From the NCBI GenBank assembly GCA_902464275.1, contig CABQIK010000007.1:8613-72612 (forward strand): a stretch of DNA of 64,000 nt. Direction: 5' to 3'. Position numbers and translations under genes: made by a program. Source of the DNA: an uncultured Alphaproteobacteria bacterium. Its GTDB lineage: Bacteria > Pseudomonadota > Alphaproteobacteria > RF32 > CAG-239. This document shows positions 1 through 44,072 of this stretch, piece by piece; the stretch's first letter is position 1; every line of letters begins with the position of its first letter. The notes beneath the pieces were generated by a model that had not been told where the DNA came from, searched no databases, and saw only the letters and a program-made list of their open reading frames with translations.

Positions 1-651
1 GCTGAAAAAATGGCGGAGCTTAAAACCACATTCGGCGTAAATGAAGGCGATGCGATTGTCTTTATGGGCGGCGGTGAAAAAGTATTAAACAAATTTGCCG
101 GCAAAGTACGTAACAAAATGGGCGAAGAATTAGGCCTGTTTGATTACAACTCATTCAAACTCTGCTGGATTGTTGATTTTCCGATGTATGAAGAAAATGA
201 CGAAACCGGCGAAATTGAATTTTCGCACAATCCGTTTTCAATGCCGCAAGGCGGTATGGACGCTTTGCAAAACAAGCACCCGCTTGAAATTTTGGCTTAT
301 CAGTATGATATGGTCTGCAACGGGGTTGAACTTGCTTCCGGCGCGGTTCGCAACCACAAGCCTGAAATTATGTACAAAGCGTTTGAAATTGCCGGTTACG
401 ACCACAGCGTGGTTGATAACAAGTTCGGCGGCATGATTAATGCCTTTAAATACGGCGCTCCTCCGCACGCCGGCGGTGCTCCCGGAATTGACCGCACGGT
501 TATGCTCTTGCTTGACGAGCCGATTATCCGCGACGTGATTATCTTTCCTCTCAACGGCAAAGCGCAAGACTTAATGATGCAGGCGCCAAACACCGTTACT
601 GAAAAACAGCTTAAAGAATTGCACATTAAGCTTGATTTAGATGAAAAATAA
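1..651 (+). CDS. aspS: aspartate--tRNA ligase, C-terminal part (5' end outside window)
   Basis: Open frame runs from position 1. Class II aaRS motif 3 ([14 protein letters not shown]) and the characteristic AspRS C-terminal region. Confidence 0.88.
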
Positions 652-672
652 CCATTATCAAAAACTTATAAA

Positions 673-699
673 ACCGCTCAGATGAGCGGTTTTATTTTG
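673..699 (+). terminator. rho-independent terminator after aspS
   Basis: Hairpin AACCGCTCA-GAT-GAGCGGTT followed by a T-run. Confidence 0.5.
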
Positions 700-738
700 C
701 CTTAACACCTGCCTCTAAGCAAATTCAGACAAATTAAA

Positions 739-768
739 AGGCTCTTGCCGTTAAGCAAGAGCCTTTTA
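739..768. terminator. bidirectional hairpin terminator downstream of pilin paralog 1
   Basis: AAGGCTCTTGC-cgttaa-GCAAGAGCCTT, flanked by A/T runs on both strands. Confidence 0.5.
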
Positions 769-796: not shown

Positions 797-1474
797 TTAG
801 TAGTACTTCCATGCTACTACGTTGTTAGAACCGGTAGAGCTACAAGCGTTAACCGCATCGCTAACAGTCATCGGAGCTTTTTTGGTTGCTGAAACAGCGC
901 CCGGAGAAACGACACATGTGTCGGCCGCACACGCTAAGCCGGTATCACCGGTATCTGTTTTAATAGCCTTAGCTTTAGTTGCTGAATTGGCTACATCCTT
1001 ACCGGCAGCAATAGCAATCAAGCCTGATGCCTGACCGGAACCCCAGTCACCGGTTGCAATGGTAACGCAAGCTTCTGACGGCAAACCTTCATAAGTAATA
1101 ACGAAAGCTTCAGAACCGGAGTCACCCGCTGATCTTGCTTCGTCTGATTCAATAGTAACAGCGCCACCGAAAGCGTTTTTAATTGAATAGTTTGAAGCAT
1201 AGGTGTTGTTTGACGCAGCAGCATACATATCATTCGGTACAACGCCGAATTTAATAGCCTGACCATTGTTCAAACCGGCATAGTCACCTTGTGATGAGAA
1301 CAAGGTACGGAGGTTAGCAACGAGCATGGAAACCTGATCAGTAGTTTTGTTGATTTTATATTTGTTCATAGCTTTTGAATAACCGGCAATACCGCCAACC
1401 GACAAAACGCCGATAATCGCCAATACGCCGAGCATTTCAACCATGGAACGACCGTTTTCATTAATGTGTTTCAT
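797..1474 (-). CDS. type IV pilin-like protein, paralog 1 (prepilin-type N-terminal cleavage/methylation domain)
   Basis: N-terminus MKHINENG|RSMVEMLGVLAIIGVLSVGGIAGYSKAM has Gly(-1) and Glu(+5). It aligns with the PilE N-terminal helix. The C-terminal region has Cys pairs. RBS AGGGGA sits 7 nt upstream of the ATG at 1474, and the longer track ORF start is unlikely. Confidence 0.7.
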   Translation of the reverse strand: MKHINENGRSMVEMLGVLAIIGVLSVGGIAGYSKAMNKYKINKTTDQVSMLVANLRTLFSSQGDYAGLNNGQAIKFGVVPNDMYAAASNNTYASNYSIKNAFGGAVTIESDEARSAGDSGSEAFVITYEGLPSEACVTIATGDWGSGQASGLIAIAAGKDVANSATKAKAIKTDTGDTGLACAADTCVVSPGAVSATKKAPMTVSDAVNACSSTGSNNVVAWKYY

Positions 1475-1736
1475 AATATTTTCCCCTAAAAAATATTCTT
1501 GTTTACAAGTTAAACTATACTGCAATTCAGCCCCTCAAACAAGCCTATCTTTAGTCATACGTTAAAGATATATATCTTAATTAAAAGAAAGACCATACAG
1601 TACATTCACCGCAGAGCATAGCCGCATCTTTATTAAAAAAACTTTAATTTGTTTAATTTTTATCACATCACCCTTGACTTAAAGTTCAAAAGTTATACTA
1701 TCAGCCTAATTTTAATCAATAATTTTAAGGTATACC

Positions 1737-3390: not shown

Positions 3391-3873
3391 TTGGTAAAAA
3401 TTTTAGGTCTTGACCCCAGTCTTTCTTCTACCGGTTGGGGAGTTATTGAAACGGAAAACAACCGTCTGCGTTACATCGCGGACGGTTTTATTCCGACTGA
3501 CCCCAAACTGCCGATTGAACAACGTCTTGACTGCTTGTATCGCGCTATTTGCCGGGTTATTGAAACATACAAGCCTGATGAAGCCTCCATTGAGGTTATT
3601 TTCTTAAACTCTAACCCTAACTCCACCATCAAATTAAGCATGGCGCGCGGTGTGGTGGTGCTCGCTCCCGGAACTTATAACATTCCGCTTTACGAGTATG
3701 AGCCGAACAAAGTTAAAAAAGCCACGGTCGGCGTAGGTAAAGCCGCCAAAGACCAGGTTGAAACCATGGTCAAAATTTTGCTCCCCGGTTGCAAACCCCA
3801 AAACAACGATTCGTCTGACGCTTTGGCAATTGCCATTACTCACGCGCACTTTCGCAATTCGCCCAAAATTTAA
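3391..3873 (+). CDS. ruvC: crossover junction endodeoxyribonuclease RuvC (TTG start)
   Basis: ILGLDPSLSSTGWGVIE catalytic N-terminus. 160 aa. Follows yebC. Confidence 0.9.
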   Translation: MVKILGLDPSLSSTGWGVIETENNRLRYIADGFIPTDPKLPIEQRLDCLYRAICRVIETYKPDEASIEVIFLNSNPNSTIKLSMARGVVVLAPGTYNIPLYEYEPNKVKKATVGVGKAAKDQVETMVKILLPGCKPQNNDSSDALAIAITHAHFRNSPKI

Positions 3874-4802
3874 TTTGTCGGCTTAAAATAACGCCTTTTG
3901 GCGTTTTCGCCTTGTTTTAATCGCCAATATTTTCTAAATTCGCACAAGCTGTTTTGCACATCGTGCAAACATAAATACTTGCCGCCGCAATACGATTCGC
4001 TTTGCCATCTGACCTCGTTCCAATCTTTGTCGGTCGTTTGTTTAAGCTCTGCAAACGCCTGCGGTTGCATTTGCCACAATTTGCGACATTCCGCATCTGC
4101 CTCTTTTTTATTAAGCACGCGCCCGCAAATTATGTTAAGTCCCCAATGCGCCCCCGGACCCACAATTAAAAAATCATTCGCGGTATACGGCACAATATTT
4201 TGAGCATAAGTTGCGTCAAGCAAAATCTGCCCTGCCAAAAACGGCCCCGCTGACGAAACGGCCTCAGCAATAATCTTCAGCCCCTCTTGCGGCGCCGATT
4301 CGCGCAAATTTTTGATTATATCTTCAAGCTTAAAACGCAAATCATTCAGCATCAGCAAAATCTGCACATGCTTATCTTGCGGACGATAATCAGGGTTATA
4401 CGCATGCGCCGTAATTAAATATGCGTTTGAAAAAATGTTGCCTTCTTGTTTTTTGGCGTCAAAACGCTTTTCCAAGGTTTTAAAGTCAAAATTTTGCTCT
4501 GAAAGCAGCCCTCCGAACAAATTTTCAATTGTGTCACGCCGATTAAAAAAGCGGTACGCAATAATATTAAACAACTTTTGCTCCGCCGGCAGCGGCTGCG
4601 CCAAATATTTACCGATGGCAATCGTTCCGCCGTCAAGCTCGCGATACACATTGCAAAATCTGAAATTTTGCAAAACTTCATCATCAGTCCATGGCGCCGG
4701 CAACCCTAAAGCCGTGCGCTTATGCCAAACCGCCTGCCGGTCATATACAAACTCAAAAAATGCCGCGGTCATTTTATCCATTATTCGTCCCCGCCAAGCC
4801 AA
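3870..4802 (-). CDS. conserved hypothetical protein (possible nucleotide/DNA-base modification-like family, unverified)
   Basis: 310-aa ORF with a FRFCNVYRELD motif. It lies between ruvC and recX. No confident family assignment from sequence alone. Confidence 0.55.
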   Translation of the reverse strand: MAWRGRIMDKMTAAFFEFVYDRQAVWHKRTALGLPAPWTDDEVLQNFRFCNVYRELDGGTIAIGKYLAQPLPAEQKLFNIIAYRFFNRRDTIENLFGGLLSEQNFDFKTLEKRFDAKKQEGNIFSNAYLITAHAYNPDYRPQDKHVQILLMLNDLRFKLEDIIKNLRESAPQEGLKIIAEAVSSAGPFLAGQILLDATYAQNIVPYTANDFLIVGPGAHWGLNIICGRVLNKKEADAECRKLWQMQPQAFAELKQTTDKDWNEVRWQSESYCGGKYLCLHDVQNSLCEFRKYWRLKQGENAKRRYFKPTN

Positions 4803-5338
4803 TCTTGCCCCAAAACCTCAGTAACAACTTCATAATCAAAACCGGCGCGGATTAAAGTGCCCATGTCTTTTTGCCGGTTAAGTTTGCGGCTTTCTTCATC
4901 AGGGCGGAACGGACCGATTTTTTTCTTTTTGGCCAGTTTAAGCGCCATTTCTTTAGAGTCATACTCCTGCCGACTTAAAACCTCGTCAATCGTGTTTTCA
5001 TCAACCCCTTTTTGTTTAAGCTTGTTTTTAATGTAGCGCTCCGGCTTTCCGGCATTTAAATAATCGCGCACTTTAAGCGAGGTATAACGCTCATCGTCAA
5101 TATATTTCCAACCGGTAAAATCGCTTAAAATTTCTTCTATCCAACCGTATGCCTCCGCTTTGTTAAAATCAGGGGTCTGATACGCATAATCATTCACCCG
5201 CCGCCGCAGCACCTGCCTTAAATTATCCTCTGACGACTCAAAGCGCTTTAAGTAATATAAACCTATGTTTTTAAGCCTTTGCTTGGTAATTTTGCGCAAT
5301 GCTTTCGGTTTGCGAGGCTGTTCTTCAAAATCTGACAC
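4781..5338 (-). CDS. recX: RecX-like regulatory protein
   Basis: 185 aa, basic, with repeated three-helix-like segments (LRQVLRRRVNDYAY...) typical of RecX. Confidence 0.6.
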   Translation of the reverse strand: MSDFEEQPRKPKALRKITKQRLKNIGLYYLKRFESSEDNLRQVLRRRVNDYAYQTPDFNKAEAYGWIEEILSDFTGWKYIDDERYTSLKVRDYLNAGKPERYIKNKLKQKGVDENTIDEVLSRQEYDSKEMALKLAKKKKIGPFRPDEESRKLNRQKDMGTLIRAGFDYEVVTEVLGQDWLGGDE

Positions 5339-5405
5339 TTGAAAACTCTTTCATTTTACACTAGATTACAACATAACTGAAAGTATAATACAAAGGATTA
5401 ACAAA

Positions 5406-6332
5406 TTGACCAATAAAAATTTTGACACTTGTGTATCTTTTTACACCAACAACGGCGCTTTTATGGGGCGGGTTGTTCGCTTGAACGATGTTTTGCAAAC
5501 CATTTTGGGCAAGCATAATTACCCGCAAGATGTTTCGTCCGCTTTGGCCGAAACTACCGCTTTGTCGGTTTTGCTTGCCGACGCCTTAAAATATAACGGA
5601 TTGTTTACCTTGCAAATTCAGGGCAACGGACCGGTTTCGGTTTTGGTTGCCGATGTTACCTCTGAAGGCAAAATCCGCGCTTGCGCCAAATTTGACGAGC
5701 AAAAATTGGCTGAAGCCAAAAAACTCCGCAAAACCGGCGATATAATTGAAGAGCTTCCGCACCTTGTCGGCGGCGGTTATATGGCGTTTACCATTGACCA
5801 AGGACCTGAAACCGAAACTTATCAGGGCGTGGTTGACCTGCAAGGAAAAACCTTAACCGAACTCGCTTTGCGCTATTTTAAGCAGTCAGAACAAATTGAC
5901 ACTATCTTAAAACTTTTTGTAAAACACCCTGAAGGCGAAAGTCAAAGTTGGCAAGCCGCCGGAATTTTAATGCAAAAAGTTCCGCTTAAAGGCGGCAACG
6001 AGCAAACTCTTGATGAAGAGGCCGTTAAAGAACTTTGGAATGAGGCGGAAGTTTTTGTCGGCAGCTTAACCGATGATGAGATGTTTAACGCCGATTTATC
6101 AACGCCGGAAATTTTACACCGCCTGTTCCACAGCAGCAACCTGCAAATCGGGCGTGAAAAAGCCTATTCTTTCGGGTGCCGCTGTAGCCGCGAAAAACTC
6201 TTGAGCACATTAAGCGCCTTTAAGCCGGAAGAAATTAACGCCATGGCTGAAGATGACGGCAAAATCACCGCGACCTGCAGTTTTTGCTCCGAAAAATACG
6301 TTTTTGATAAAAACGAATTGCTAAAACACTAA
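5406..6332 (+). CDS. hslO: Hsp33 redox-regulated chaperone
   Basis: C-terminal zinc centre CRCSREK...CSFCSEKY (CxC...CxxC) and Hsp33 length. Confidence 0.85.
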   Translation: MTNKNFDTCVSFYTNNGAFMGRVVRLNDVLQTILGKHNYPQDVSSALAETTALSVLLADALKYNGLFTLQIQGNGPVSVLVADVTSEGKIRACAKFDEQKLAEAKKLRKTGDIIEELPHLVGGGYMAFTIDQGPETETYQGVVDLQGKTLTELALRYFKQSEQIDTILKLFVKHPEGESQSWQAAGILMQKVPLKGGNEQTLDEEAVKELWNEAEVFVGSLTDDEMFNADLSTPEILHRLFHSSNLQIGREKAYSFGCRCSREKLLSTLSAFKPEEINAMAEDDGKITATCSFCSEKYVFDKNELLKH

Positions 6333-6424
6333 TTAAGTGCTTGCATAAGCGCAAATTTTGTATTAAATAAAGTTTATCTTAACTTAAAGACAAACTTTTT
6401 AGCTAAAAACAACGGATTAGAAAA

Positions 6425-7033
6425 ATGAACAGATTACATAAAATTTTTGCGGCAGCCGCCGTTTTATTAATCAGCGCCTGCGCCGGTCAAGCCGATGTTG
6501 CCGAACCGCGCCGCTTTACCGAGCCCCGCTTTGACAGCAAACCCAAAATTGAACTTCAGGTTGGCAAAATTGACGTTATTTCTGAATTTACCCCGTCTTT
6601 TACCCGCCCGAATGTTGAGCATCTGTTCCCGATTTCTATTGAAAAAACCGCCCGAATTTGGGCTCATGACCGCTTAGAAGCGGCCGATTTTTCATCTAAC
6701 CGTGTGGCTGAATTTATAATCAAAGACGCCAGCGTTACCGAAACTGAAGAAAAAGCCCCGCAACTGTTTTACAAAGATAACTTAAAATACCGCGCAACTT
6801 TGTCGGTAGTGTTAAAAATCAGTTCCGCCAACGGGCAATCGCAAGCGCAAACTTCTATTGAAGCATGGCGCGAGCTTACCATGCCGATTGACACTAGCAT
6901 TGAAGATAAAGAAAAATACTGGAACGAAATGGTTTATAAGCTCTTTGACGAATTTAACATGCGTATGGAACAAAACATTCACCAATACTTAAATATGTAT
7001 GTTAAAAACAACAATAACATTACCGAATACTAA
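6425..7033 (+). CDS. lipoprotein, function unknown
   Basis: Signal peptide with lipobox LLISAC. 202 aa. Confidence 0.55.
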   Translation: MNRLHKIFAAAAVLLISACAGQADVAEPRRFTEPRFDSKPKIELQVGKIDVISEFTPSFTRPNVEHLFPISIEKTARIWAHDRLEAADFSSNRVAEFIIKDASVTETEEKAPQLFYKDNLKYRATLSVVLKISSANGQSQAQTSIEAWRELTMPIDTSIEDKEKYWNEMVYKLFDEFNMRMEQNIHQYLNMYVKNNNNITEY

Positions 7034-7039
7034 AATTTA

Positions 7040-7064
7040 AGCTCCCGTTCGGGAGCTTTTTTAA
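7040..7064 (+). terminator. rho-independent terminator
   Basis: GCTCCCG-TTC-GGGAGC followed by TTTTTT. Confidence 0.6.
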
Positions 7065-7112
7065 TGCCCGCTTTAACCCTAATTTAAACGATTCGGTGTT
7101 TTAATTTGTTTT

Positions 7113-8393
7113 ATGATAAGCAAATTAAAAAACATATATAAAATTTACTTCAACCGCAAAATGGCGGCTTTAACCGCTTTGGGTTTTGCCAGCGGTTTTC
7201 CGTTTTTGTTAGTGTTCAGCACTTTAAGTTTATGGCTTAAAGAAGCCGGTTGGACTTATGCCGCTATCGGCGCTTTTTCGCTTGTAAAAATTCCGTATGC
7301 TTTTAAGTGGGTGTGGTCGCCTTTGCTTGATAATATCAAACTTCCGTTGCTTTGGCGCTTAGGGCGCCGCCGCAGTTGGGGGCTTTTAATGCAAATTTTG
7401 CTGTTTTTGGCTGTTATGGCCATGAGCGCCGTCAATCCCGAATATCAGCACCGCTTAATTTGGATTTGCGCGGCGGCGGTTTGCTTTTCATCAGCCTCGC
7501 TTGATATTATTCTTGACGCCTATCGGGTTGAAACATTTAAAGACACTCCCAACGAACAAGCATCAGGAGCGGCGGTGTTTGTTTTGGGTTATCGCATCGG
7601 CTTAATTTTTTCCGGCGCCGGCGCATTGTGGCTAGCCACCGTAATGAGTTGGAACAATGTGTATATGATTATGGCATCAGGTTCAATTATCGGCTTTATC
7701 ACCTTATTGCTGATTAAAGAACCGAACACCGGATTTAAATATGCCGCCGCTTCACACAAGCCGATTCGCACTCGCGTAACCGAATTTTTAACCCATTCGG
7801 TTAAAGCTCCGCTCCAAGATTTTACCAAACACAGCCATTGGCCGCTGATTATCTTTTTGATTTTTATTTACCGCATGAGCGACGCATATTTTGCCCCGAT
7901 GTCATTTCCGTTTTATGACGATATGGGATTCAGCAAAGCCGAAATTGCCTATGTTATCAAAATTTACGGCATGGCGGCAACCATTGCCGGCGGACTTTTC
8001 GGCGGAGTGCTGCTCAAAAAAATCGGACTGTTTAAGGGCTTATATTTGTGCGGATTTATTCAGGGCTTAACCACCCTGTTGTTCAGCTTGCAAGCTCTTG
8101 CCGGTCATAATGTGCCACTCTTGACCGTGGTCATCACGCTTGAAAACTTTTCATCGGGTATGGCAACCACCGCTTTTGTTGCCTACATCTCGTCATTATG
8201 CAACGTTCTGTACACCGCCACCCAATACGCGCTACTTTCATCGCTGATGAGTCTGGCGCGCGATGTGTTCTCAGCCACCAGCGGACTGTTGGCGCAACTG
8301 GTTTCATGGCCGATATTTTTTATAGTTGCCGCCGCATTCAGCATTCCCGGAATTATTGCGGTAAAATACCTTTCCAAACACCAAACAAGTTAA
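7113..8393 (+). CDS. ampG: AmpG family muropeptide MFS transporter
   Basis: 12-TM MFS protein. N-terminal LGFASGFPFLL...LVKIPYAFKWVWSPLLD matches the AmpG/PAT signature. Confidence 0.8.
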   Translation: MISKLKNIYKIYFNRKMAALTALGFASGFPFLLVFSTLSLWLKEAGWTYAAIGAFSLVKIPYAFKWVWSPLLDNIKLPLLWRLGRRRSWGLLMQILLFLAVMAMSAVNPEYQHRLIWICAAAVCFSSASLDIILDAYRVETFKDTPNEQASGAAVFVLGYRIGLIFSGAGALWLATVMSWNNVYMIMASGSIIGFITLLLIKEPNTGFKYAAASHKPIRTRVTEFLTHSVKAPLQDFTKHSHWPLIIFLIFIYRMSDAYFAPMSFPFYDDMGFSKAEIAYVIKIYGMAATIAGGLFGGVLLKKIGLFKGLYLCGFIQGLTTLLFSLQALAGHNVPLLTVVITLENFSSGMATTAFVAYISSLCNVLYTATQYALLSSLMSLARDVFSATSGLLAQLVSWPIFFIVAAAFSIPGIIAVKYLSKHQTS

Positions 8394-8433
8394 CCGCCAT
8401 ACTATTTCCGCCCTTCAGTCAGGGTGGTTTAAA

Positions 8434-8922
8434 TTAAGCTGTACCTGCGGACAGCGCAACCAAAATTTGCTCCAACACCTCTTGCGCCGGTTTATCAAAA
8501 TCAACGCATACGCTGTTATCATTGCGCAAACAGCAAGTCTTGTTTTTAACGTCATATAAGCAAAAAGGCGTGGTAAAATGCTCGCCGTATAAAACCGAAT
8601 CATCAATATGAAAATTTATGCCGTGCTGTTCGCAATATTCCGCTTTGGCCGCGTTCCACAACTTGTCATCAACCTTAAACGACCCATCCGGCAAATAAGT
8701 CAGTTGCTTGTTTTTATCAAAATAATCCGCGAGCGACCAAATATGTGAGTACGGAATTTGGTGTTGCCGCAAAAAATCGGTAATATCTTTTTCAAACCCG
8801 CCGCTTAAAATATAAATTTGTATTCCCCGCGCCAGTGCCAGAGTGTTAAAATCTTTAAAAAACTCCGGATTCGCAGTTATCACCCCATGATAATCAATGC
8901 CGATTTTTAAATCTGTCGCCAT
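8434..8922 (-). CDS. hypothetical protein (possible HAD-like fold)
   Basis: 162-aa ORF whose stop abuts the asmA-like start. IGIDYHGVI N-terminus. Confidence 0.4.
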   Translation of the reverse strand: MATDLKIGIDYHGVITANPEFFKDFNTLALARGIQIYILSGGFEKDITDFLRQHQIPYSHIWSLADYFDKNKQLTYLPDGSFKVDDKLWNAAKAEYCEQHGINFHIDDSVLYGEHFTTPFCLYDVKNKTCCLRNDNSVCVDFDKPAQEVLEQILVALSAGTA

Positions 8923-11900
8923 TAATTACTCTCCGCTGAAAACAAATCTTTAACCGAATTGGGACTGAACACTGAAAGCGGATTTATACTGATTTTCGGC
9001 TCATGCACACTGCCTTTAATTTTATAGCTGACCGCAAATACCGTGCCGTCTTTGCCGGCCAAAACCGACCCGACCACCGGAATTTTGCCGATTAAAGAAT
9101 TTAAACTGTATGCCGGCGAAACAATCCCTTTAATATCAAGCTCTTTGCTTGCTTTTTTGTATGAACCGCTGCCGGTAAAACCGATAACATTACCAAACAT
9201 TTTAGCGTCTTTAATATAAAGCACTTTATTTTTATATTCAAACGGCGCGTCAAAGTGTGAAAACGTTAAACCCTCGCCGCGCAGCAAATCCAAAATTCCG
9301 CTGAATGACGCCATGGTTAAAAGCTTAGCCAGCAGCGGCGTGTTATGAATACTGAAATCGCGGATTTGCGCATGCCCGATAAATTCTTTATTGCGGTTGC
9401 GTTTGGCCTCAATTTTCAAAATACCGCCGGTCATATCATCATAAAGACGCAAAACCCTTAGCGTGCTGCCGGCATTATTACTGTCAACCGAAAGCAAATA
9501 CTCACCATCAGGACGAGGAACATAATCAAGTTTAAGCTTAATTGATTTATCTGAGCCGTAGTTGCCCACCATATGCACCTCGTCAATACCTATTTTAGGC
9601 TTTAACAGCGCGCTTCCGGCAAAATTTTTAATCGGCGTATCGGGGTTGGTCCACAAACTGTTCACCGCAATAAACACTTCCGTATTCGGCACATTGGTCC
9701 AATCGTCATCATCGCTTTTGCTATTGCCTGATGCGGCTTTATTTTCCGTGGCGGCAAAAAGCTCGGTTAAGTCATAACTGTTTCCGCTGACGTTAATTTT
9801 AACTTTTTTACCCTTGTCGGCAAATTCAATTTTAGCCTTAGCCGATGTTTTAGGCCCGTGAATACGGCTAATATTAATAACTTTAAGCTCGCCCGATTTA
9901 TTAAGCGTAATATCGCCGCTTAAATCAAAATCAGATTTATGCAGACTGAACGCGCTGATTTTGCTTATTTTACTGCCGTCAAGCTCTAATTGCGCTTTAA
10001 CATTTCCGGGCACTCCGCTGGCTTTTTTAAACCCTAAAAAGCTGTAATCTATCGCCGCATTTTTCAAATCGGCATCAACCGCAAGCGTGGTTTTATTGTT
10101 GTTCAAAACCGTTAAATTTGCCGTTACATCAGCATATCCGTTAATATACGGCGCATTCAAAAGCGCGGTGTCAACCCCTAGTTTTTTCTTGGCCGCATCA
10201 TTTAGCACAAAATTAAGCGTGCCTTTATTTTTATAAGTTTTATCCTTAAAAAACTCATTAAAGGCAATTTTAAGCGGAATACCGTCAAAATCAGCGTCAC
10301 CCTTAACTTCAAAACCTTTATCGTTCACTTGCAAAAACAATTTTTCCGCCGTTAAATCTTTGCCGTCCAAAGCGTTCGGATATTTTAAATTTTGCAAATC
10401 GGCCTTAACATCAACTTTAATTTCATCAGGCGACAAATCTTGATACAATTCAAAATTAAGCCCCAAATCAATTTCAACATCACCGCTGACAGCATCCGGA
10501 TTAATGCCTATTTCTTTGGCATAGTTAAGCGGCGGATTGTCAATAAAGCGCAACGCGTCGCTCACGCTTGAATTGCCTTTAATGTTAATATCAATAAAGT
10601 TGTTATATTTATTTAAGTCATACAAACGAACATTGCCGCCGGTGATGATAACGCCGTCTGAAACACCCTTATCCACCTTAATATCAATGTCAGAGGTTGA
10701 AAATTCAGCCACCCCGTAAACATTGTTTACCACCGGCATGCCTTCAAGATATGAAATATTGCTGTCAACCACATCTGCCCTGCCTTTAAGGCTTAATAAA
10801 TCTATGCCTTTAGCCGCTTGGTCATAACCGAACGTAAACACAAATTTGCCGTTTTCGGCATATCCGCCAAACAAATTTTGCTTGCACCATTCCCAAGCCG
10901 GTTCTGCCAAATACCGCGGCCAAAACTTTGATAAATCGTCTAACTTAAACTTGGCAATATCTGCTTCAAATACAATTTTTAAATCACTCAGCGAGCGCTC
11001 AAACACATATTTTTTATAGCCTGAAATATCCAAACTGAGTTTGGTTTTTTGCCCGCCGACCGTAAAATCGGCATTTGACACCTTAACCGAGTTTAAGCCG
11101 CTGTCTATATTGCCGTTAAGCACAAAGGCATCAATGGCATAATTAAATTTGTCGTCATCGTTAAAAATAACCTCGCCGTCACTGCCTTTAATCTGAAAAC
11201 GCAAATCTTCAAGCGCGGCGTCCAAGCTGCCGATTAAATCGCGTTTACCGGCCATAATATCGTCAAAATCAATCAGCGCAAGCACATTACCGTCAACCGG
11301 AACATCAATTTTAGGCATATTTTCGCTGATATTGCTGATTAAATCTGAAAGCATTAAGTCCGCAAACGAAAAATCAAGTGCCAGATGATTATTGCTTATT
11401 TGGTATTTTCCGCCCAAATTTAAGGTCGCAAGCCGGTCTTTTAAGTCAAGCAATCCGCCGATTCCTATTTCCAAATTGTTAATATTGCGGTCAAAATCAA
11501 ACTTAACGTCTTTAAAGCTCCACTTGCGCCCTAAATCAACTTCATGAAACTCAACTTCGGCATTATTAATATTAATTTCATTAATAAAGCTTTCAGGATA
11601 AATATCATCATCAGAGTTAAACCGTTCCAAAAATCCTTCAAACCAATCAACGTAGGCCTGAACCTTCTTTTTGTTAATTTCGTTGGTTTTATCTTTTTCC
11701 ACCCCGTAAGTCATAAAAATTGCCACTTGCGGATTTTCAACCGTCACGCTGCTCGGCGCCACAATACCTTTAAGCAACGCCCGCACGCTGAACGAAAGCG
11801 AAAGTTTCGGCGCTTTAATTGAAAATTTATCATCTGCCGCGCGCAAACTGACATTATTGGCAATAATTTTTATCGGCTGAATTGAGCGCACCAACTCCAA

Positions 11901-23094: not shown

Positions 23095-23676
23095 TTAGAA
23101 ATCAGCTTTTATCTTTTCAGTCAATTTATATATTCCGGCAAATTTTGAGGCATTATATTCCGGCTCGCCACTTAATGATATTTCCCATTGACGGGCTTTT
23201 TTAACAGCATGTTCATAATTCGGCATTTTGGCTAAATCAAAATAAGGGTTCCTATCATGTTTATAAAAAAGCATAATGCTTTCTAATCTTGATTGCGCTT
23301 CGCCTTGAGAATTTACATTGTCAATATCATAATGGAGCAACGGCCAAATTTCTATACATGGTTTCATATATGCCATATAAATATTCATACCGCTTTGCCT
23401 GATTATGTCAATAGCCTCTCTAACTTCAGAATCTCTTCCGTCATGGTCAAAGATAACCCATATTTCACTTTTTGGCATCTTTAAATCATTATATCTTCTT
23501 ACAGCTTCTCTTGCTAACGTAACCGGATTTTGATTTATATGAATTTTATTCAATTTTACCAACGAAGTTTTCTTTTGTTGCTGAATAAATTTTTGCAGAT
23601 AATCCAATTCGGTTTTACCCTCATAAAAAAGTTGAATTACCAGTTTAAATTCTGAACGTTTACCGAAATCACTCAT
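23095..23676 (-). CDS. RloB-like / TOPRIM-domain protein (AbiLii-like), probable nuclease partner
   Basis: TOPRIM signature: conserved Glu in FYEGKTE and DxD in VIFDHDGRD. About 193 aa. The ATG at 23676 overlaps the upstream ATPase stop by 8 nt (ATGAGTGA). AT-rich. Confidence 0.65.
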   Translation of the reverse strand: MSDFGKRSEFKLVIQLFYEGKTELDYLQKFIQQQKKTSLVKLNKIHINQNPVTLAREAVRRYNDLKMPKSEIWVIFDHDGRDSEVREAIDIIRQSGMNIYMAYMKPCIEIWPLLHYDIDNVNSQGEAQSRLESIMLFYKHDRNPYFDLAKMPNYEHAVKKARQWEISLSGEPEYNASKFAGIYKLTEKIKADF

Positions 23677-24955
23677 TATTGAAGCCCCCAATCATAGGAA
23701 TTGCTCCGTATTTACCTTGCATATAACCTTTTTGCAGATTTTTATCAAAGCGAGGAGTAAATTGATATAGTGAATACAAATCAGAGGATCCGTCTTGGCG
23801 TTTTTCTGTAAACCAAATTTCATCGGTACGCCAAATCTCATTAGTCATTAAATTTAAATCATGTAAAGTAACAATAAGCTGCCCTTTATTTTTATCATTT
23901 TCCAAATGTTCTTGAATTAAAAACTTGCTCAAAAACGGATGCAACCGACAATCAAGCTCGTCTATAATCAAACATGTATTGGAATCTCTGAGCAAATAAA
24001 ATGACAACGCCAAATCTATTAAGCGTTTTGTTCCATCAGATTCTTCTCCGATTTTAAACCTTACATCATTATGAATGGTTCTTAAAGCAAGCCCTTTTTT
24101 TCCACCAGGCGTTATACTGATTGCAACAACATCTCCTTCTGTTGACTTAGAAAACAATGTGCCGTAACCTTGTTTTTGCCCTGATGCCAGTGCCTCTTTA
24201 TAAAAATATTCCGTTTCATTATTTGAAAGTTTAATCCATTGTATATCAGAAATTCCTACATCCGCCGTTCTTAACAACCGTCTTAAAAAATCTTGAAATT
24301 CCTGTTGGTTAAAAAACATTCCGAAAATAACCGGATTTACTAAACTATTGGGCGATGTTATTACCAACATTTCAAAAAATTTTAAAACATCTGTTATATA
24401 TTTTGCTCCCGATATTTTAGCGGCATTTTCTATTATTCCGTCTTGGCGAAGTTTAAATAAAAATGTGGTTACCGATTGAAATGTGCGGTTTTTATACCAA
24501 TCTTCACTTTTACTTAACGCTCCATGCAATTCAATTTCAGACAAACGTCTGCTAAACAACGGCTTTATCTCTCCGCTTTTTTGTAATATTGATAATTGCT
24601 CAAACGGAATTTGAATTCCGTTTGTAACCAACTTATACCTATACGCCGTTCCATTAATTTGAAAATCTATTTCAAATTCAGTATTAAATATTTTTTTTGC
24701 CAATTTAAACTGATGCGACAAAACAAAAGCTGTGCTATCAGACATAACACACCAAAACAAGGCTTCTAACGCATGTACAAAATTAGATTTTCCAGACGCG
24801 TTTGCCCCATAAATAGCAGCGCCTTTTAACGCGCTGAAAGGCTTGCCGTCAAGCACATGTTTTTTATGTTGTTTTGATATTTTCCCCGGAAATAATGAAA
24901 AAGTCGCTGTTTCATTAAATGAAGCAAAATTTGATACAGAAAAATTCAAAAGCAT
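23669..24955 (-). CDS. ABC-type AAA ATPase (AAA_21/AAA_15-like; AbiLi/RloA/AriA-like)
   Basis: Walker A GANASGKSN near the N-terminus, Walker B LIIDELD, and an H-loop TLHD at the C-terminus, with a long inserted middle domain. It is co-oriented and overlaps the TOPRIM gene. Confidence 0.7.
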   Translation of the reverse strand: MLLNFSVSNFASFNETATFSLFPGKISKQHKKHVLDGKPFSALKGAAIYGANASGKSNFVHALEALFWCVMSDSTAFVLSHQFKLAKKIFNTEFEIDFQINGTAYRYKLVTNGIQIPFEQLSILQKSGEIKPLFSRRLSEIELHGALSKSEDWYKNRTFQSVTTFLFKLRQDGIIENAAKISGAKYITDVLKFFEMLVITSPNSLVNPVIFGMFFNQQEFQDFLRRLLRTADVGISDIQWIKLSNNETEYFYKEALASGQKQGYGTLFSKSTEGDVVAISITPGGKKGLALRTIHNDVRFKIGEESDGTKRLIDLALSFYLLRDSNTCLIIDELDCRLHPFLSKFLIQEHLENDKNKGQLIVTLHDLNLMTNEIWRTDEIWFTEKRQDGSSDLYSLYQFTPRFDKNLQKGYMQGKYGAIPMIGGFNNE

Positions 24956-40972: not shown

Positions 40973-42025
40973 ATGCCTAATATGAGTGATATTATCATTA
41001 CACCTGATATACTGCGAAGCATATCTGAAATAGATACATTTAAAGGATCTTGGAACAGTGGCGGTATTAAAATTGCGCCTGAACAATTAAAAACGATGAA
41101 AAGAATTGCCACGATTGAATCCATTGGTTCCTCAAATCGTATTGAAGGCAATAAATTAAATGATATTGATGTTGAAACCATATTTAACAACATCAATAAA
41201 AAATCATTTCAAACTCGTGATGAACAAGAAGTTGCCGGTTATGCTGATTTATTAGCTACAATATTTGACAATTATCAAAACATTCCATTATCGGAAAATT
41301 ATATCAGACAGCTTCATAAAATTTTATTAAACTATTCTGATAAAGATGAACGCCACAGAGGAGAATATAAAAAAGATTCAAACAGAGTTGCCGCATTTGA
41401 TGCAAATGGTCATGAAATCGGTACTATTTTTGAAACGGCCACTCCTTTTGACACACCACGCTTGATGCAAGAATTGATTGATTGGACCAACAGAAATTTC
41501 AATGATGGATATTTTCATCCGATAATAACTATTGGCGTATTTATTGTCCGCTTCTTGGCAATACACCCGTTTACTGACGGCAACGGTCGTATGTCAAGAG
41601 CATTAACAACAATGTTATTACTGCAAAACGGCTACAATTACATGCCTTACGCTTCTATGGAATCTGTTATTGAAGCAAGCAAAGATTTATATTATAGGGC
41701 ATTAAGAGCAACCCAAAAAACTATTTGGAATGATAAAGTAAATTACGAGCCTTGGTTAACTTTCTTTGTAACATCATTGCAAAAACAAAAACGCCATTTG
41801 GAATATAAAATAAAAAAATCATCTGATACAATAAGATACAATAAAACAGAACAAAGCATAATAAATTTATTTGATATAAAATCAAATTGGTCTGTTTTGG
41901 AAATATCTGAAACATTAGGTAAAAACAACGAGACAGTTAAAAAGAATGTTCAGAATCTTGTAAAAAAAGACATTTTAGAAAAACAAGGGACAACAAAAGG
42001 AACCTATTATATTTTGAAAAAATAA
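40973..42025 (+). CDS. Fic family protein (AMPylator-like) with C-terminal wHTH-like region
   Basis: Canonical Fic motif HPFTDGNGRMSR. AT-rich codon usage relative to neighbouring core genes. Confidence 0.85.
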   Translation: MPNMSDIIITPDILRSISEIDTFKGSWNSGGIKIAPEQLKTMKRIATIESIGSSNRIEGNKLNDIDVETIFNNINKKSFQTRDEQEVAGYADLLATIFDNYQNIPLSENYIRQLHKILLNYSDKDERHRGEYKKDSNRVAAFDANGHEIGTIFETATPFDTPRLMQELIDWTNRNFNDGYFHPIITIGVFIVRFLAIHPFTDGNGRMSRALTTMLLLQNGYNYMPYASMESVIEASKDLYYRALRATQKTIWNDKVNYEPWLTFFVTSLQKQKRHLEYKIKKSSDTIRYNKTEQSIINLFDIKSNWSVLEISETLGKNNETVKKNVQNLVKKDILEKQGTTKGTYYILKK

Positions 42026-42090
42026 AAGATAATACTCCGTTTTTTAAACGGATATAGGCCTATAACCCCTAAGATACAGTTCAAAGACAG

Positions 42091-42192
42091 GGTGGTTTAT
42101 ACAACTTATGCACAGCTTTGGACTCGTAAATATTGCAAAAAAAAAACGCGAGCTAAAATCTTCTTAAATTTAACAATTTGAGGAGATTTTTA
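42091..42192 (+). promoter_or_regulatory. orphan copy of the conserved pilin-gene upstream cassette (promoter/5' leader)
   Basis: About 100 nt, near-identical to the sequence 5' of pilin paralogs 2 and 3 (...ggactcgtaaatattgcaaaaaaaaaacgcgagctaaaatcttcttaaatttaacaatttgaggagatttt). Here it is followed by an unrelated short ORF. Confidence 0.6.
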
Positions 42193-42330
42193 ATGTTTAT
42201 CCAAAATATACTAGCTAAGCTTGCGGATGGTGAGGCAGATACGACGGGATTTTGGAGCGACTTGTACACAAAAAGGTACACGAGCGAGAAAATCCCTAGC
42301 AGCTGCCCGCTAGACGCAAGCGTAAAATGA
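42193..42330 (+). other. short ORF (45 aa) or small RNA body driven by the orphan cassette, ending in the 46-nt repeat element and a terminator
   Basis: ATG is placed exactly where the pilin ATG sits in the other cassette copies. It is followed by the 46-nt element (42329..42374) and the hairpin ATACTCAATC-ataa-GATTGAGTAT (42388..42411). Confidence 0.25.
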
Positions 42331-42418
42331 GCTTACAAGCAAGACCGAACCCCGCAGGGGTGAGATTCCCCTCTCGGTTAAAAAAAATACTCAATCATAA
42401 GATTGAGTATTTTTATAA

Positions 42419-42917
42419 TTGGTGGAGCTGAGGGGGCTTGCAGAGTCACAAAAATGTCCGGTGGACATTTTTTGCCGGCAAGCATCAGCTGCTGTTAGCG
42501 AGCGATGAGCCGACAGGCGATAAGAGCGAACGTTACAGCTGCTTGACCGCAGCGCAGTTAGCGACTGCCCTTTGGGCAGAGCTTACAAGCAAGACCGAAC
42601 CCCGCAGGGGTGAGATTCCCCTCTTCTAAAGACACAAAAGCACTTAAGCAAAAGCCTAAGTGCTTAAAAATTGGTGGAGCTGAGGGGGCTTGCAGAGTCA
42701 CAAAAATGTCCGGTGGACATTTTTTGCCGGCAAGCATCAGCTGCTGTTAGCGAGCGATGAGCCGACAGGCGATAAGAGCGAACGTTACAGCTGCTTGACC
42801 GCAGCGCAGTTAGCGACTGCCCTTTGGGCAGAGCTTACAAGCAAGACCGAACCCCTAGGGTTAGATTCCCCTCTTAAAAATAAAAGCACTTAAGCAAAAG
42901 CCTAAGTGCTTAAAAAT
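42419..42917 (+). repeat. two tandem direct repeats of about 250 bp, each starting with a copy of the 3' 17 nt of tRNA-Ala
   Basis: Units 42419..42670 and 42671..42916 are over 95% identical. Each begins TTGGTGGAGCTGAGGGG, which matches the reverse complement of the tRNA-Ala 3' end at 42918. Each contains hairpins (AAAAATGTCC-ggt-GGACATTTTT and CTGCCC-ttt-GGGCAG) and the 46-nt element GAGCTTACAAGCAAGACCGAACCCC(GCAGGGGTGAG)ATTCCCCTCT. Each ends with the hairpin AAGCACTTAAG-caaaag-CCTAAGTGCTT. Confidence 0.85.
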
Positions 42918-42993
42918 TGGTGGAGCTGAGGGGAATCGAACCCCTGACCTCCTCAATGCCATTGAGGCGCTCTCCCAACTGAGCTACAACCCC
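42918..42993 (-). tRNA. tRNA-Ala (anticodon GGC)
   Basis: Minus-strand sequence GGGGTTGTAGCTCAGTTGGGAGAGCGCCTCAATGGCATTGAGGAGGTCAGGGGTTCGATTCCCCTCAGCTCCACCA. G3:U70 Ala identity pair, anticodon loop AUGGCAU, encoded CCA. A hairpin plus T-run terminator lies downstream on the minus strand. Confidence 0.9.
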
Positions 42994-43115
42994 ATCAGTG
43001 ATGGTATGCGGGCATATTACAATAAAAATTTTTAATGTCAAACACTTTTTGCTAAACTCTTAAAAATAAAAGCGCCCGCAAAATAACCGGACGCTTTAAT
43101 TTGATGGCTTTAAGC

Positions 43116-44072
43116 TTATTCTTCCGATCCGCCTTCGGCATCAGCCGATGCCATAATATCCGGCAATGTTCCGATAGCTTTTTTACGTTTCAACTTGTTT
43201 ACAAACTTAATTGAACGTTGAGCATCCCACTTCTTTTTACCTTCTTCATGCTGAAAGATTTGTTTGTAAACTTCAATCGCCTGATCAAATTCAGACAACT
43301 TGGTTAAGCATGAAGCCAAACCATCATACATTTTGTGATGATAACGACCGTTTACAAGCTGTTGAGCTTTTTTGTAACATTTAAGAGCATCTTTAAACTT
43401 AAACATTTTTTGATAAACAAAGCCGATGCTAATCCAAGCCTGAATTTCGCTGCTGTTAATGTTTAAAATTTTGGTAAAACATTTTAAGGCCGAATCATTA
43501 TCGCCCATCAGCTGATAGGTAACGCCGATACCGTTCCATGCTTTAACGTTGGTTTTATCCGATGACAACACCTTTTTGAAAAACGCGATTGAGCGGTCAT
43601 ACTGTTTAAGCTTTTGGAGTGTAACCGCAATGCTGAGCAAGGTTTGCGGGTGTTTGTTGTCAATCTTCATGGCTTGTTCCAAAACATCCAAAGCTTCTTT
43701 GAACAAAAACATGTGTTGCAAAGCAATCGCTTTACCGTTTAAGGCCTCAAGCGAAGTTTGATCAATGGCAAAAGCCTCGTCAAAGCAGGCAATCGCCTCT
43801 TTGTAAAGCCCGCGCATTGAAAGGGTAACCCCTTTATTGTTAAGCACTTCAACTGATTTCGGATTAAGCGCAAGCGCTTTATCAAAACATTCAACCGCGT
43901 CAGTATAGCGGCTCATTTTTTGAAAAGCAAAACCTTTAGAGTTCATAGCTTTCCATGAATCCGGCTGTTCGGTTAAAACTTCATCAAATTGTGCAACAGC
44001 CTCTTTATACATACCGCTGTCTAATAATTCCTGCCCTCTTTTATAGGCGTTGTTGTCGTTCATTTTTACCAT
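43116..44072 (-). CDS. tetratricopeptide repeat protein
   Basis: Multiple 34-aa TPR units (A..F..AL..P.....N.G pattern) across 318 aa. Confidence 0.7.
   Translation of the reverse strand: MVKMNDNNAYKRGQELLDSGMYKEAVAQFDEVLTEQPDSWKAMNSKGFAFQKMSRYTDAVECFDKALALNPKSVEVLNNKGVTLSMRGLYKEAIACFDEAFAIDQTSLEALNGKAIALQHMFLFKEALDVLEQAMKIDNKHPQTLLSIAVTLQKLKQYDRSIAFFKKVLSSDKTNVKAWNGIGVTYQLMGDNDSALKCFTKILNINSSEIQAWISIGFVYQKMFKFKDALKCYKKAQQLVNGRYHHKMYDGLASCLTKLSEFDQAIEVYKQIFQHEEGKKKWDAQRSIKFVNKLKRKKAIGTLPDIMASADAEGGSEE

Follow-up and report, generated by a model that had tools for sequence, protein, structure and literature searches.

Tandem units linked to tRNA-Ala in an uncultured alphaproteobacterium share the architecture of the rtT repeats of Escherichia coli

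The tyrT-linked rtT repeats of Escherichia coli have been known since the late 1970s, and their origin and function are unexplained. In 1991 Boesl and Kersten reportedly described an RNA of ~171 nt that is released from the tyrT transcript. Here we analyze a tandem array of ~250-bp units found 3' of a tRNA-Ala(GGC) gene in 64,000 nucleotides of DNA from an uncultured Alphaproteobacteria bacterium (GTDB lineage RF32; CAG-239; assembly GCA_902464275.1, contig CABQIK010000007.1, positions 8,613 to 72,612 of the forward strand). This whole stretch is called the window, and positions are counted from its first letter. An earlier note, made from the sequence alone, had taken the units for reiterated att-site scars at a tRNA integration hotspot. 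We find that they belong to a dispersed family of short cassettes with a conserved interior and the layout of rtT. The explanation that we favor, tentatively, is an rtT-like family of structured, non-coding cassettes linked to tRNA genes, which may be expressed as trailer RNAs of the tRNA operon and may multiply by recombination through their tRNA-derived ends.

We fetched the tyrT/tyrV locus of E. coli K-12 as a control. Its repeats lie directly 3' of the tRNA gene (period 178, 3.1 copies), with rttR and tpr annotated inside them. Each unit ends with 19 nt of the tRNA-Tyr 3' end including CCA. Within it, 22 nt repeat the tRNA-Tyr T arm in inverted form (86% complementary), one T-arm half (AAGGTTCGA) recurs in direct orientation 2 nt later, and 10 nt are perfectly complementary to the unit's own 3' fragment.

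Anatomy of the array and its likeness to rtT

The sole array that Tandem Repeats Finder reported spans 42329..42933 (period 252, 2.4 copies, 91% matches, score 1007). Two near-identical full units had been recognized in the earlier note, and they share a 192-nt stretch at 99% identity, but the array does not end at 42419 as then proposed: a truncated third unit carries it on to 42329. The tRNA-Ala(GGC) gene itself was confirmed by ARAGORN and Rfam, and its acceptor stem, GGGGUUG/CAGCUCC, contains a G3:U70 pair. Read in tRNA sense, that is, with descending coordinates on the minus strand (Table 1), each full unit consists of an intrinsic terminator, a 46-nt element, a 143-nt body, and the last 16 nt of the tRNA including CCA. 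The sequence TGGTGGAGCTGAGGGG occurs exactly three times in the 64 kb (42420, 42672, and 42918), always on the tRNA strand, with 0.01 occurrences expected from shuffles; the feature is real and beyond chance. The repeated tRNA 3' end had been given as 17 nt. The repeat is genuine, but only 16 nt derive from the tRNA (positions 61-76, CCCCTCAGCTCCACCA), and the seventeenth is the first flanking base. The identity block begins exactly at the boundary between T-loop and T-stem, and the intervals between the tRNA and its fragments measure 230-236 bp. The 46-nt element, in which a degenerate T-arm/acceptor sequence had been suspected, is T-arm derived and can now be described more exactly: 19 of its nucleotides repeat the T arm of this same tRNA in inverted form (89% complementary), and a direct copy of the T-arm 5' half, GGGGTTCGG, follows 2-3 nt past it. 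In the middle unit, CAGGGGTGAGATTCCCCTC (plus strand) is 89% complementary to the T-arm region at 42928..42946, and the proximal element likewise holds an inverted T-arm copy and then GGGGTTCGG. The perfect 10-bp and 6-bp hairpins and the 12-bp terminator hairpin listed in the earlier note are all present in the units. The covarying helix of the middle unit surrounds a near-invariant core of ~40 nt (GTAACG..GCTAAC), and its equivalent in the proximal unit lies 252 nt higher. The terminator type behind the last 16-mer of the array, termB, is the one found directly behind tRNA-Ala(GGC) in a related locus (L097).

We compared these units with the E. coli repeats. Both systems have tandem units 3' of a tRNA gene, a tRNA 3' end with CCA, an inverted T arm followed by a direct T-arm half, a complement to the unit's own 3' fragment, and a doubtful short open reading frame (ORF). 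They differ in that sequence and covariance-model similarity is lacking, in the tRNA (Ala here, Tyr in E. coli), and in the bacterial lineage. Here, in contrast to rtT, an intrinsic terminator stands between the tRNA and every unit, the unit is longer and its replaceable hairpin can hold an insert of ~115 nt, and copies are further located behind another isoacceptor gene and at loci in which no tRNA was detected. The Rfam RtT model (RF00391, gathering threshold 45 bits) has no match in the window at threshold, nor any over 42000..43300 at E values up to 10; applied to E. coli as a positive control, it recovers four copies with 133-137 bits. Literature searches on tRNA-linked repeats returned nothing specific. 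Among the explanations that the earlier note had offered, tandem structured small RNAs fit best, with the tyrT rtT repeats as the nearest precedent by analogy. The array represents a second, unrelated case of this architecture (inverted T arm, direct half, folded insert, tRNA 3' end), at another tRNA and in another bacterial class, which suggests a general mechanism or function behind it rather than an E. coli oddity.

The distal unit has no body, and the place of a long insert is filled by a sequence that we call module B. It is long and hairpin-like, and it can also be read as an ORF of 45 amino acids (called as a gene) with a strong GAGGAG ribosome-binding site before it (MFIQNILAKLADGEADTTGFWSDLYTKRYTSEKIPS...). 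Module B may be a small protein gene or a further structured element. A near-identical module B core is found in L095 (about 600..760), where it is inverted, has no unit attached, and closely precedes a pilin-like gene.

Copy-number variation and dispersal

Ten metagenome contigs of the same locus were found through exact identity of the TPR protein encoded next to the tRNA gene. The earlier note had proposed to compare this tRNA locus among relatives for presence/absence polymorphism, and such polymorphism exists, with 0, 1, or 2 units in independent assemblies that encode an identical TPR protein. Units are absent from three contigs (L006, L007, and L010), in which the tRNA is followed by termA, the 46-nt element, and unique sequence. 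One unit is present in L002, with termA on its distal side, and in L003 and L004, with termB in that position; L001 has two units and matches the window. The remaining contigs (L005, L008, and L009) end within or directly behind a unit. Every copy-number form can be derived by recombination among the 52-nt block of 16-mer and termA, the 46-nt element, and the 192-nt identical stretch. The step from L002 to L006 fits an excision at the 16-mer, and homologous recombination between the longer repeats explains all variants equally. The variants come from different samples and their junction sequences differ; collapse of repeats in short-read assembly remains a possible source of part of them. The genes beyond the units vary among relatives as well (Fic in the window, a DUF4011 helicase gene in L096 and L097). 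Because unit number is polymorphic, copies occur elsewhere, and gene content differs, the locus, as judged from these assemblies, is a recombination-active spot and the cassette has spread.

We searched for further members of the family by using the translation of the unit ORF as a protein query and fetching the contigs, and by scanning metagenome DNA. The protein query returned 16 clusters, all metagenomic, and the DNA scan returned two matches, both at tRNA-Ala(CGC) loci. Five locus types were found, named here after their tRNA or neighboring gene: TPR/tRNA-Ala(GGC), ClpB/tRNA-Ala(CGC), Amdase, cas1, and CTP-transferase. The search for dispersed copies or an intact element, suggested earlier, has thus yielded copies behind tRNA-Ala(CGC) and at three further loci in which no tRNA was detected, but no integrase-bearing element. 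The orientation of the unit relative to the tRNA is identical at both tRNA-Ala loci. A terminator is present on both sides of the unit wherever the contig extends, and terminator sequences differ between loci. L096 (CGC locus) and L097 (GGC locus), which stem from different samples, have near-identical long units that precede the same DUF4011 helicase gene; the L097 junction is possibly an assembly chimera formed via the repeat. When all fetched DNA (1.28 Mb) was searched with a profile, copies were confined to this clade, and the window had none elsewhere. An exact scan of the 46-nt element against a collection with one genome per species gave 0 matches. A scan of this collection with the MoxR protein encoded upstream of the array identified the closest species representatives at 71-77% identity, which are metagenome-assembled genomes from gut or rumen labeled Rhodospirillaceae, Alphaproteobacteria, or Pseudomonadota. 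The clade is thus too distantly represented in the collection. The natural variation in copy number, the two tRNA-Ala loci, the copies distant from any tRNA, and the replaceable hairpin make the question of a general mechanism or function accessible to comparative tests.

Table 1. Features of the array, listed in tRNA sense, and contigs with related units at other loci
Feature	Position or contig	Strand	Remarks
Sigma-70-like promoter of the tRNA-Ala gene	43014..43041	minus	TTGACA / 16 nt / TAATAT
tRNA-Ala(GGC), complete cloverleaf	42918..42993	minus	ARAGORN and Rfam (65 bits)
Terminator hairpin termA, copy 1	42884..42911	minus	12-bp stem and T run, directly past the tRNA CCA
46-nt element, proximal variant copy	42831..42876	minus	72% ungapped identity to the reference; 2-nt deletion
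Proximal unit body, 143 nt	42688..42830	minus	conserved core and structural helices
16-nt copy of the tRNA 3' end, CCCCTCAGCTCCACCA	42672..42687	minus	closes the proximal unit
Terminator hairpin termA, copy 2	42638..42665	minus	
46-nt element, canonical copy, middle unit	42579..42624	minus	
Variable-hairpin position, CTGCCC-TTT-GGGCAG (6 bp)	42565..42579	minus	same hairpin at 42817..42831 in the proximal unit
Middle unit body, 143 nt	42436..42578	minus	
Covarying helix	42487..42543	minus	plus-strand AGCTGCTGT (42487..42495) with ACAGCTGCT (42535..42543)
Perfect 10-bp hairpin A5-TGTCC-GGT-GGACA-T5	42450..42472		no strand assigned; second copy 42702..42724
16-nt copy of the tRNA 3' end	42420..42435	minus	closes the middle unit
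Terminator hairpin termB	42383..42414	minus	14-bp perfect stem, sequence unlike termA
46-nt element, third copy	42329..42374	minus	opens the truncated distal unit, which has no body and no 16-mer
Module B	42193..42330	plus	stands in the distal unit where a long insert would be
tRNA-Ala(CGC) beside clpB	L093-L096, L099, L103-L105		one unit behind the tRNA
tRNA-Ala(GGC), same locus as the window	L097		second species
Beside an Amdase-family gene	L092, L101, L102, L106		no tRNA within several kb; GTCCACCA and terminator on the upstream side
Beside cas1	L091		at least 2.2 tandem units at the contig end
Near a CTP-transferase gene	L098		unit and terminator, then truncated start of another unit

The related loci show several features of their own. 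Units of the long form (L092, L093, L096, L097, and L101-L106) carry an insert of ~115 nt exactly at the variable-hairpin position, closed by AAGCTTGCG/CGCAAGCTT (in L092 at about 6131..6247); the same locus has the long form in L093 and the short form in L094, which stem from different samples. The ends of this insert resemble the ends of window segment 42215..42328. Directly behind the unit terminator in L096 starts an 1827-aa helicase-nuclease-like gene with DUF4011, AAA_11, AAA_12, and MTES_1575 domains (4371..9854), which is also found in L104 and L105. It displaces ~130 nt of the usual flank of the CGC locus, and the same gene start is located behind the GGC unit in L097 (1..1128). The array of L091 (5998..6524) lies directly beside cas1 of a type II locus (cas9, cas2, cas1); the contig ends in the array, and no tRNA is visible on it. 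At the Amdase locus (L092 at about 6345..6420, plus strand, and likewise L101, L102, and L106), the unit is preceded, in tRNA sense, by a sequence of ~65 nt, GGGGCGCGAAC...GTCCACCA, with a terminator of its own. It gave no tRNA call; it may represent the decayed remains of a tRNA or of a unit, or else a small RNA that ends in CCA. At the CGC loci (L096 at 10427..10803, minus strand; L093, L095, L099, L103, and L104), one or two tandem "U" units of ~188 nt are positioned upstream of tRNA-Ala(CGC). Each opens with 21 nt identical to the tRNA 5' end (GGGGTTGTAGCTCAGTTGGGA) and continues with a hairpin flanked by A/T and a conserved segment of ~130 nt, and a good promoter is found upstream of the first. 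The U units are a 5'-end mirror image of the 3' units; that they are inverted relatives of these was rejected, as even the best local alignment (score 19) stays below the highest value among shuffles (22).

Conserved fold, strand, and coding potential

We aligned 11 distinct units, which have a mean column identity of 88%. The core and the hairpin A6-TGTCC-ACC-GGACA-T5 are almost invariant across them; the A/T runs and inner stem of this 10-bp hairpin do not vary at all, and two units have one loop-edge substitution each. Compensatory change is seen in two helices. The one beside the hairpin is GCTTGC/GCAAGC in the majority of copies but GCTTCCCG/CGGGACAGC in L091. The other, which encloses the core (helix 5), reads AGCAGCTGT/ACAGCAGCT in the window, AGCTACTGT/ACAGTAGCT in L092, and AGATGGTGT/ACACCAACT in L091, and two of its pairs have both partners changed, one in 5 sequences and the other in 2. 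Four unrelated sequences occupy the variable-hairpin position (GCCC/GGGC, GCC/GGC, GCTTTA/TAAAGC, and GTTGCT/AGCAAC), where the long forms have their ~115-nt insert. The RNAalifold consensus in tRNA sense has an energy of -43.8 kcal/mol, compared with -25.8 +/- 4.3 for column shuffles, and 97.4% of its cells are paired, compared with 38-54% when partners are slid. Changes on both sides affect 11 cells in 4 pairs, and the covariation score of 0.080 (0.045 in shuffles) is attained by 0 of 500 shuffles. Together, these findings provide moderate evidence that the units carry a selected fold. All six terminator-like sites of the region lie on the tRNA strand, and G-U pairs outnumber A-C mismatches in tRNA sense; from both, the strand of the presumed RNA leans toward the tRNA strand.

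Two ORFs in the units (42438..42629 and 42690..42893) had been judged probably non-coding. They are present on the plus strand as described, with 63 and 67 amino acids and TTG starts, and the variable columns do not show a codon-position bias: they fall on positions 1/2/3 as 14/8/10, with no excess at the third, and non-synonymous changes slightly exceed synonymous ones overall. Homologous ORFs range from 51 to 109 amino acids and their C-termini differ between copies; no Pfam domain was found in the clusters of unit ORFs. A small protein was once proposed likewise for tpr in the E. coli repeats. That the repeated frames encode one here is supported by gene callers, which annotate the ORFs in many assemblies, and by translations that are 59-95% identical. 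With TTG starts, unstable lengths and C-termini, the column counts above, no recognizable domain, and a reading frame that crosses hairpins and enters the tRNA-derived segment, we regard it as extremely unlikely, and the unit ORFs most likely do not code. Repeats of this kind thus yield spurious ORF calls in metagenome annotation, 16 protein clusters in the present case.

Explanations for the units and other genes of the window

According to the trailer-RNA reading that we favor, the cassette would be transcribed in tRNA sense as part of the tRNA operon. Read-through of the terminator is proposed because no promoter of its own is visible before any unit. The trailer would fold into a rod that is closed through pairing of the tRNA-derived ends, and its 3' end would be trimmed to CCA by tRNA 3'-processing enzymes, releasing a stable RNA of ~200 nt. 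Copy-number change and spread would occur at the DNA level, by recombination between the 16-mer with its terminator (52 nt), the 46-nt elements, and the 192-nt stretch, and exchange would also take place between the two tRNA-Ala loci. Several points weigh against this proposal. A strong terminator stands between the tRNA and each unit, and the only promoter-like site on either strand of 42000..43150 is that of the tRNA-Ala gene, so that expression would need read-through; that a trailer RNA is made in these uncultured organisms is something we infer from sequence. The link to rtT is an analogy and not a demonstrable homology, because the Rfam RtT model does not match the window, and the function of rtT is itself still unclear (bioRxiv 10.1101/2024.07.17.603846). 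The covariation comes from 11 sequences that are close relatives, the number of doubly changed pairs falls short of significance, being attained by 68 of 500 shuffles, and the plus strand folds at least as well as the tRNA strand (-51.7 versus -43.8 kcal/mol), which leaves the strand unsettled by energy. The same conservation pattern could stem from a structure used as single-stranded DNA. Copies at the Amdase, cas1, and CTP-transferase loci need movement beyond simple unequal crossing-over, for which a recombinase acting in trans is possible.

A tyrosine integrase acting in trans is central to the account closest to the earlier note, in which the units are reiterated att-site remnants, tiny integrase-less elements akin to cis-mobilizable elements that accumulated by accretion. 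Each unit would be the residue, essentially the attP arms, of an element once inserted at the tRNA-Ala 3' end, and the integrase, encoded at another place in the genome, could still mobilize it. We consider it rather unlikely. The literature amply describes both tandem islands at tRNA genes and 3' fragments that were displaced (PMC4383910, PMC9897764, PMC5704250), and the array shares with such islands and their remnants a correctly oriented direct repeat of the tRNA 3' end past an intact tRNA, the tandem layout, unit numbers that differ between strains, and variable genes beyond the units (Fic in the window, the DUF4011 helicase gene in L096, L104, and L105). At ~250 bp, the unit has about the size of an attP, and the Amdase-locus copy is bounded by a short repeat only (GTCCACCAAT / CTCCACCAAT), like a secondary att site. 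The last terminator of the array is of the type directly behind tRNA-Ala(GGC) in L097, as expected if units had entered between the tRNA and its native terminator; however, terminator types are shuffled among loci, which makes a native termB only suggestive, and the corresponding virgin site (tRNA, termB, 46-nt element) is found in none of the ten same-locus contigs. Of the features by which Islander recognizes islands (PMC4383910), the intact tRNA and a same-orientation fragment are present, and an integrase between them is absent. Indeed, no integrase or transposase domain was found in the 30 window ORFs of suitable size, nor among the genes called on either side of the units at the five locus types (over 4-10 kb, as far as contigs extend); viral-contig scans returned no contig with the unit sequence, these searches yielded no parent element, and no distal 16-mer or other tRNA fragment was found to bound the 5.6-kb DUF4011 insertion in L096. 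Unlike genomic islands, the units are short and gene-free, with an identity block of 16 nt and a structured, conserved interior. Compensatory changes and a replaceable hairpin are unexpected in protein-binding att arms, and the E. coli rtT repeats, which have the same architecture, are an RNA-producing part of a tRNA operon. The polymorphism and the copies elsewhere agree with the earlier claim of att-site scars; the missing integrase, transposase, and viral contigs and the compensated interior do not. The scar reading is thus only partly supported: none of its evidence is direct, and decaying scars would not show a conserved interior with compensatory changes. Short tRNA 3'-end repeats beside tRNA genes should not automatically be read as island scars. 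Neutral tandem duplication, by slippage or unequal crossing-over between short repeats and without function or mobility, could account for the 99% identity of the two full units over 192 nt, which makes the duplication in the window recent, and for all copy-number variants. It seems improbable to us for the array as a whole, as the unit is found at five locus types in several species with a conserved interior between unconserved flanks and terminators, near-identical long units occur at both tRNA-Ala loci in different samples, and structure is kept through pair changes on both sides.

Other short repeats were compared as well. Miniature inverted-repeat transposable elements (MITEs) and REP/BIME, RPE, and Correia elements are likewise short, non-coding, hairpin-rich, multi-copy, and intergenic beside terminators. 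The units differ from them in lacking terminal inverted repeats longer than 6 nt and a target-site duplication, in their fixed orientation at both tRNA-Ala loci, and in occupying only a handful of loci. A MITE-like element, considered in the earlier note, was rejected on these grounds: the unit ends share only GAGGGG/CCCCTC, and nothing besides the tRNA-derived 16-mer is duplicated. An integron attC site was rejected too, since GTTAGCG/CGCTAAC do not fit GTTRRRY/RYYYAAC (by eye) and no IntI is present.

We also compared the unit with transfer-messenger RNA (tmRNA), including the two-piece permuted form of alphaproteobacteria. Shared features are a tRNA-Ala-like 3' end (CAGCUCCACCA), a possible G3:U70 acceptor stem, and a large structured interior. 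The unit might encode a tRNA- or tmRNA-like RNA, in which GGGGUU near the 5' end pairs with AGCUCC before ACCA and which serves as substrate or decoy of RNase P or alanyl-tRNA synthetase. RNAalifold does select this closing stem, with six invariant pairs, the third of them G-U, and a 4-nt ACCA tail. The Rfam permuted-tmRNA model aligns the 3' half of the tRNA, a loop, and the GGGGUUcG of the unit as acceptor stem (19-23 bits, E = 0.02-0.13), and a short frame, ANCAAVKQL-stop, whose start has a GUCGCUAAC context and whose stop falls into the covarying helix's loop, is laid out like a tmRNA tag frame. However, the unit has no T arm beside the acceptor 3' strand, ARAGORN reports no tmRNA, and Rfam scores (19-41 bits for the tmRNA and permuted models) stay below the gathering value of 47. 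In these matches the tRNA-like part is the true tRNA gene, to which the unit adds just GGGGUUcG in the permuted model. The closing stem is invariant and thus untested by covariation, and the single-sequence minimum-energy fold favors another closing helix, GAGGGG/CCCCUC, of the type used by the E. coli rtT unit. The "tag" varies at codon positions 1 and 2, and conservation is lacking at its C-terminus (QL, LL, MV, IP). In contrast to tmRNA, the unit is multi-copy and lacks a T arm, a conserved tag, and a significant Rfam or ARAGORN match; a tmRNA-like product is thus very unlikely. Also rejected was a two-piece tmRNA to which the unit would contribute the coding piece and the tRNA the acceptor piece: the tRNA is complete, P2-type pairing is absent, and the "tag" is unconserved. 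A broader idea, which we offer as speculation and hold to be improbable, is that the cassettes are a mobile RNA-gene family mimicking the tRNA-Ala acceptor end (G3:U70, ACCA, and possibly a pseudoknotted acceptor/T-stem stack) and form, with E. coli rtT, a general class of tRNA-end-mimicking trailer RNAs that seed themselves at tRNA 3' ends. If so, the mimic RNA could be recognized by RNase P, the CCA-adding enzyme, or alanyl-tRNA synthetase. The class would have gone unrecognized so far, and the different unit at the CGC loci would seed the tRNA 5' end likewise.

Upstream of tRNA-Ala(GGC) lie genes for MoxR, DUF58, and TPR proteins, and downstream of the array are genes for a Fic protein, a proton-pumping pyrophosphatase, and an ankyrin protein. 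In the only two MoxR relatives with contigs that extend beyond the TPR gene (L012 and L013), the MoxR-DUF58-TPR order is kept and the tRNA-Ala gene is absent at that place. Rfam scans of the window, the array region, L096, L098, L092, and L091 identified tRNAs and an unrelated RNase P RNA, and no ribozyme, RtT, or tmRNA. Elsewhere in the window, neighboring genes at 23095..24955 (minus strand) encode an ATPase of the AAA_21 type (AbiEii-like) together with an RloB-like protein, as is typical of two-gene anti-phage systems. An ORF at 3870..4802 (minus strand) matches the helical domain of 5-hydroxymethyl-dU DNA kinase (HMUDK_hel, E = 3e-48), which belongs to hypermodified-thymidine pathways, better known in phages. 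An ORF at 797..1525 (minus strand) contains PilS/Bundlin type IVb pilin domains, and pilin-like genes are also found near a repeat-bearing locus of a relative (L095).

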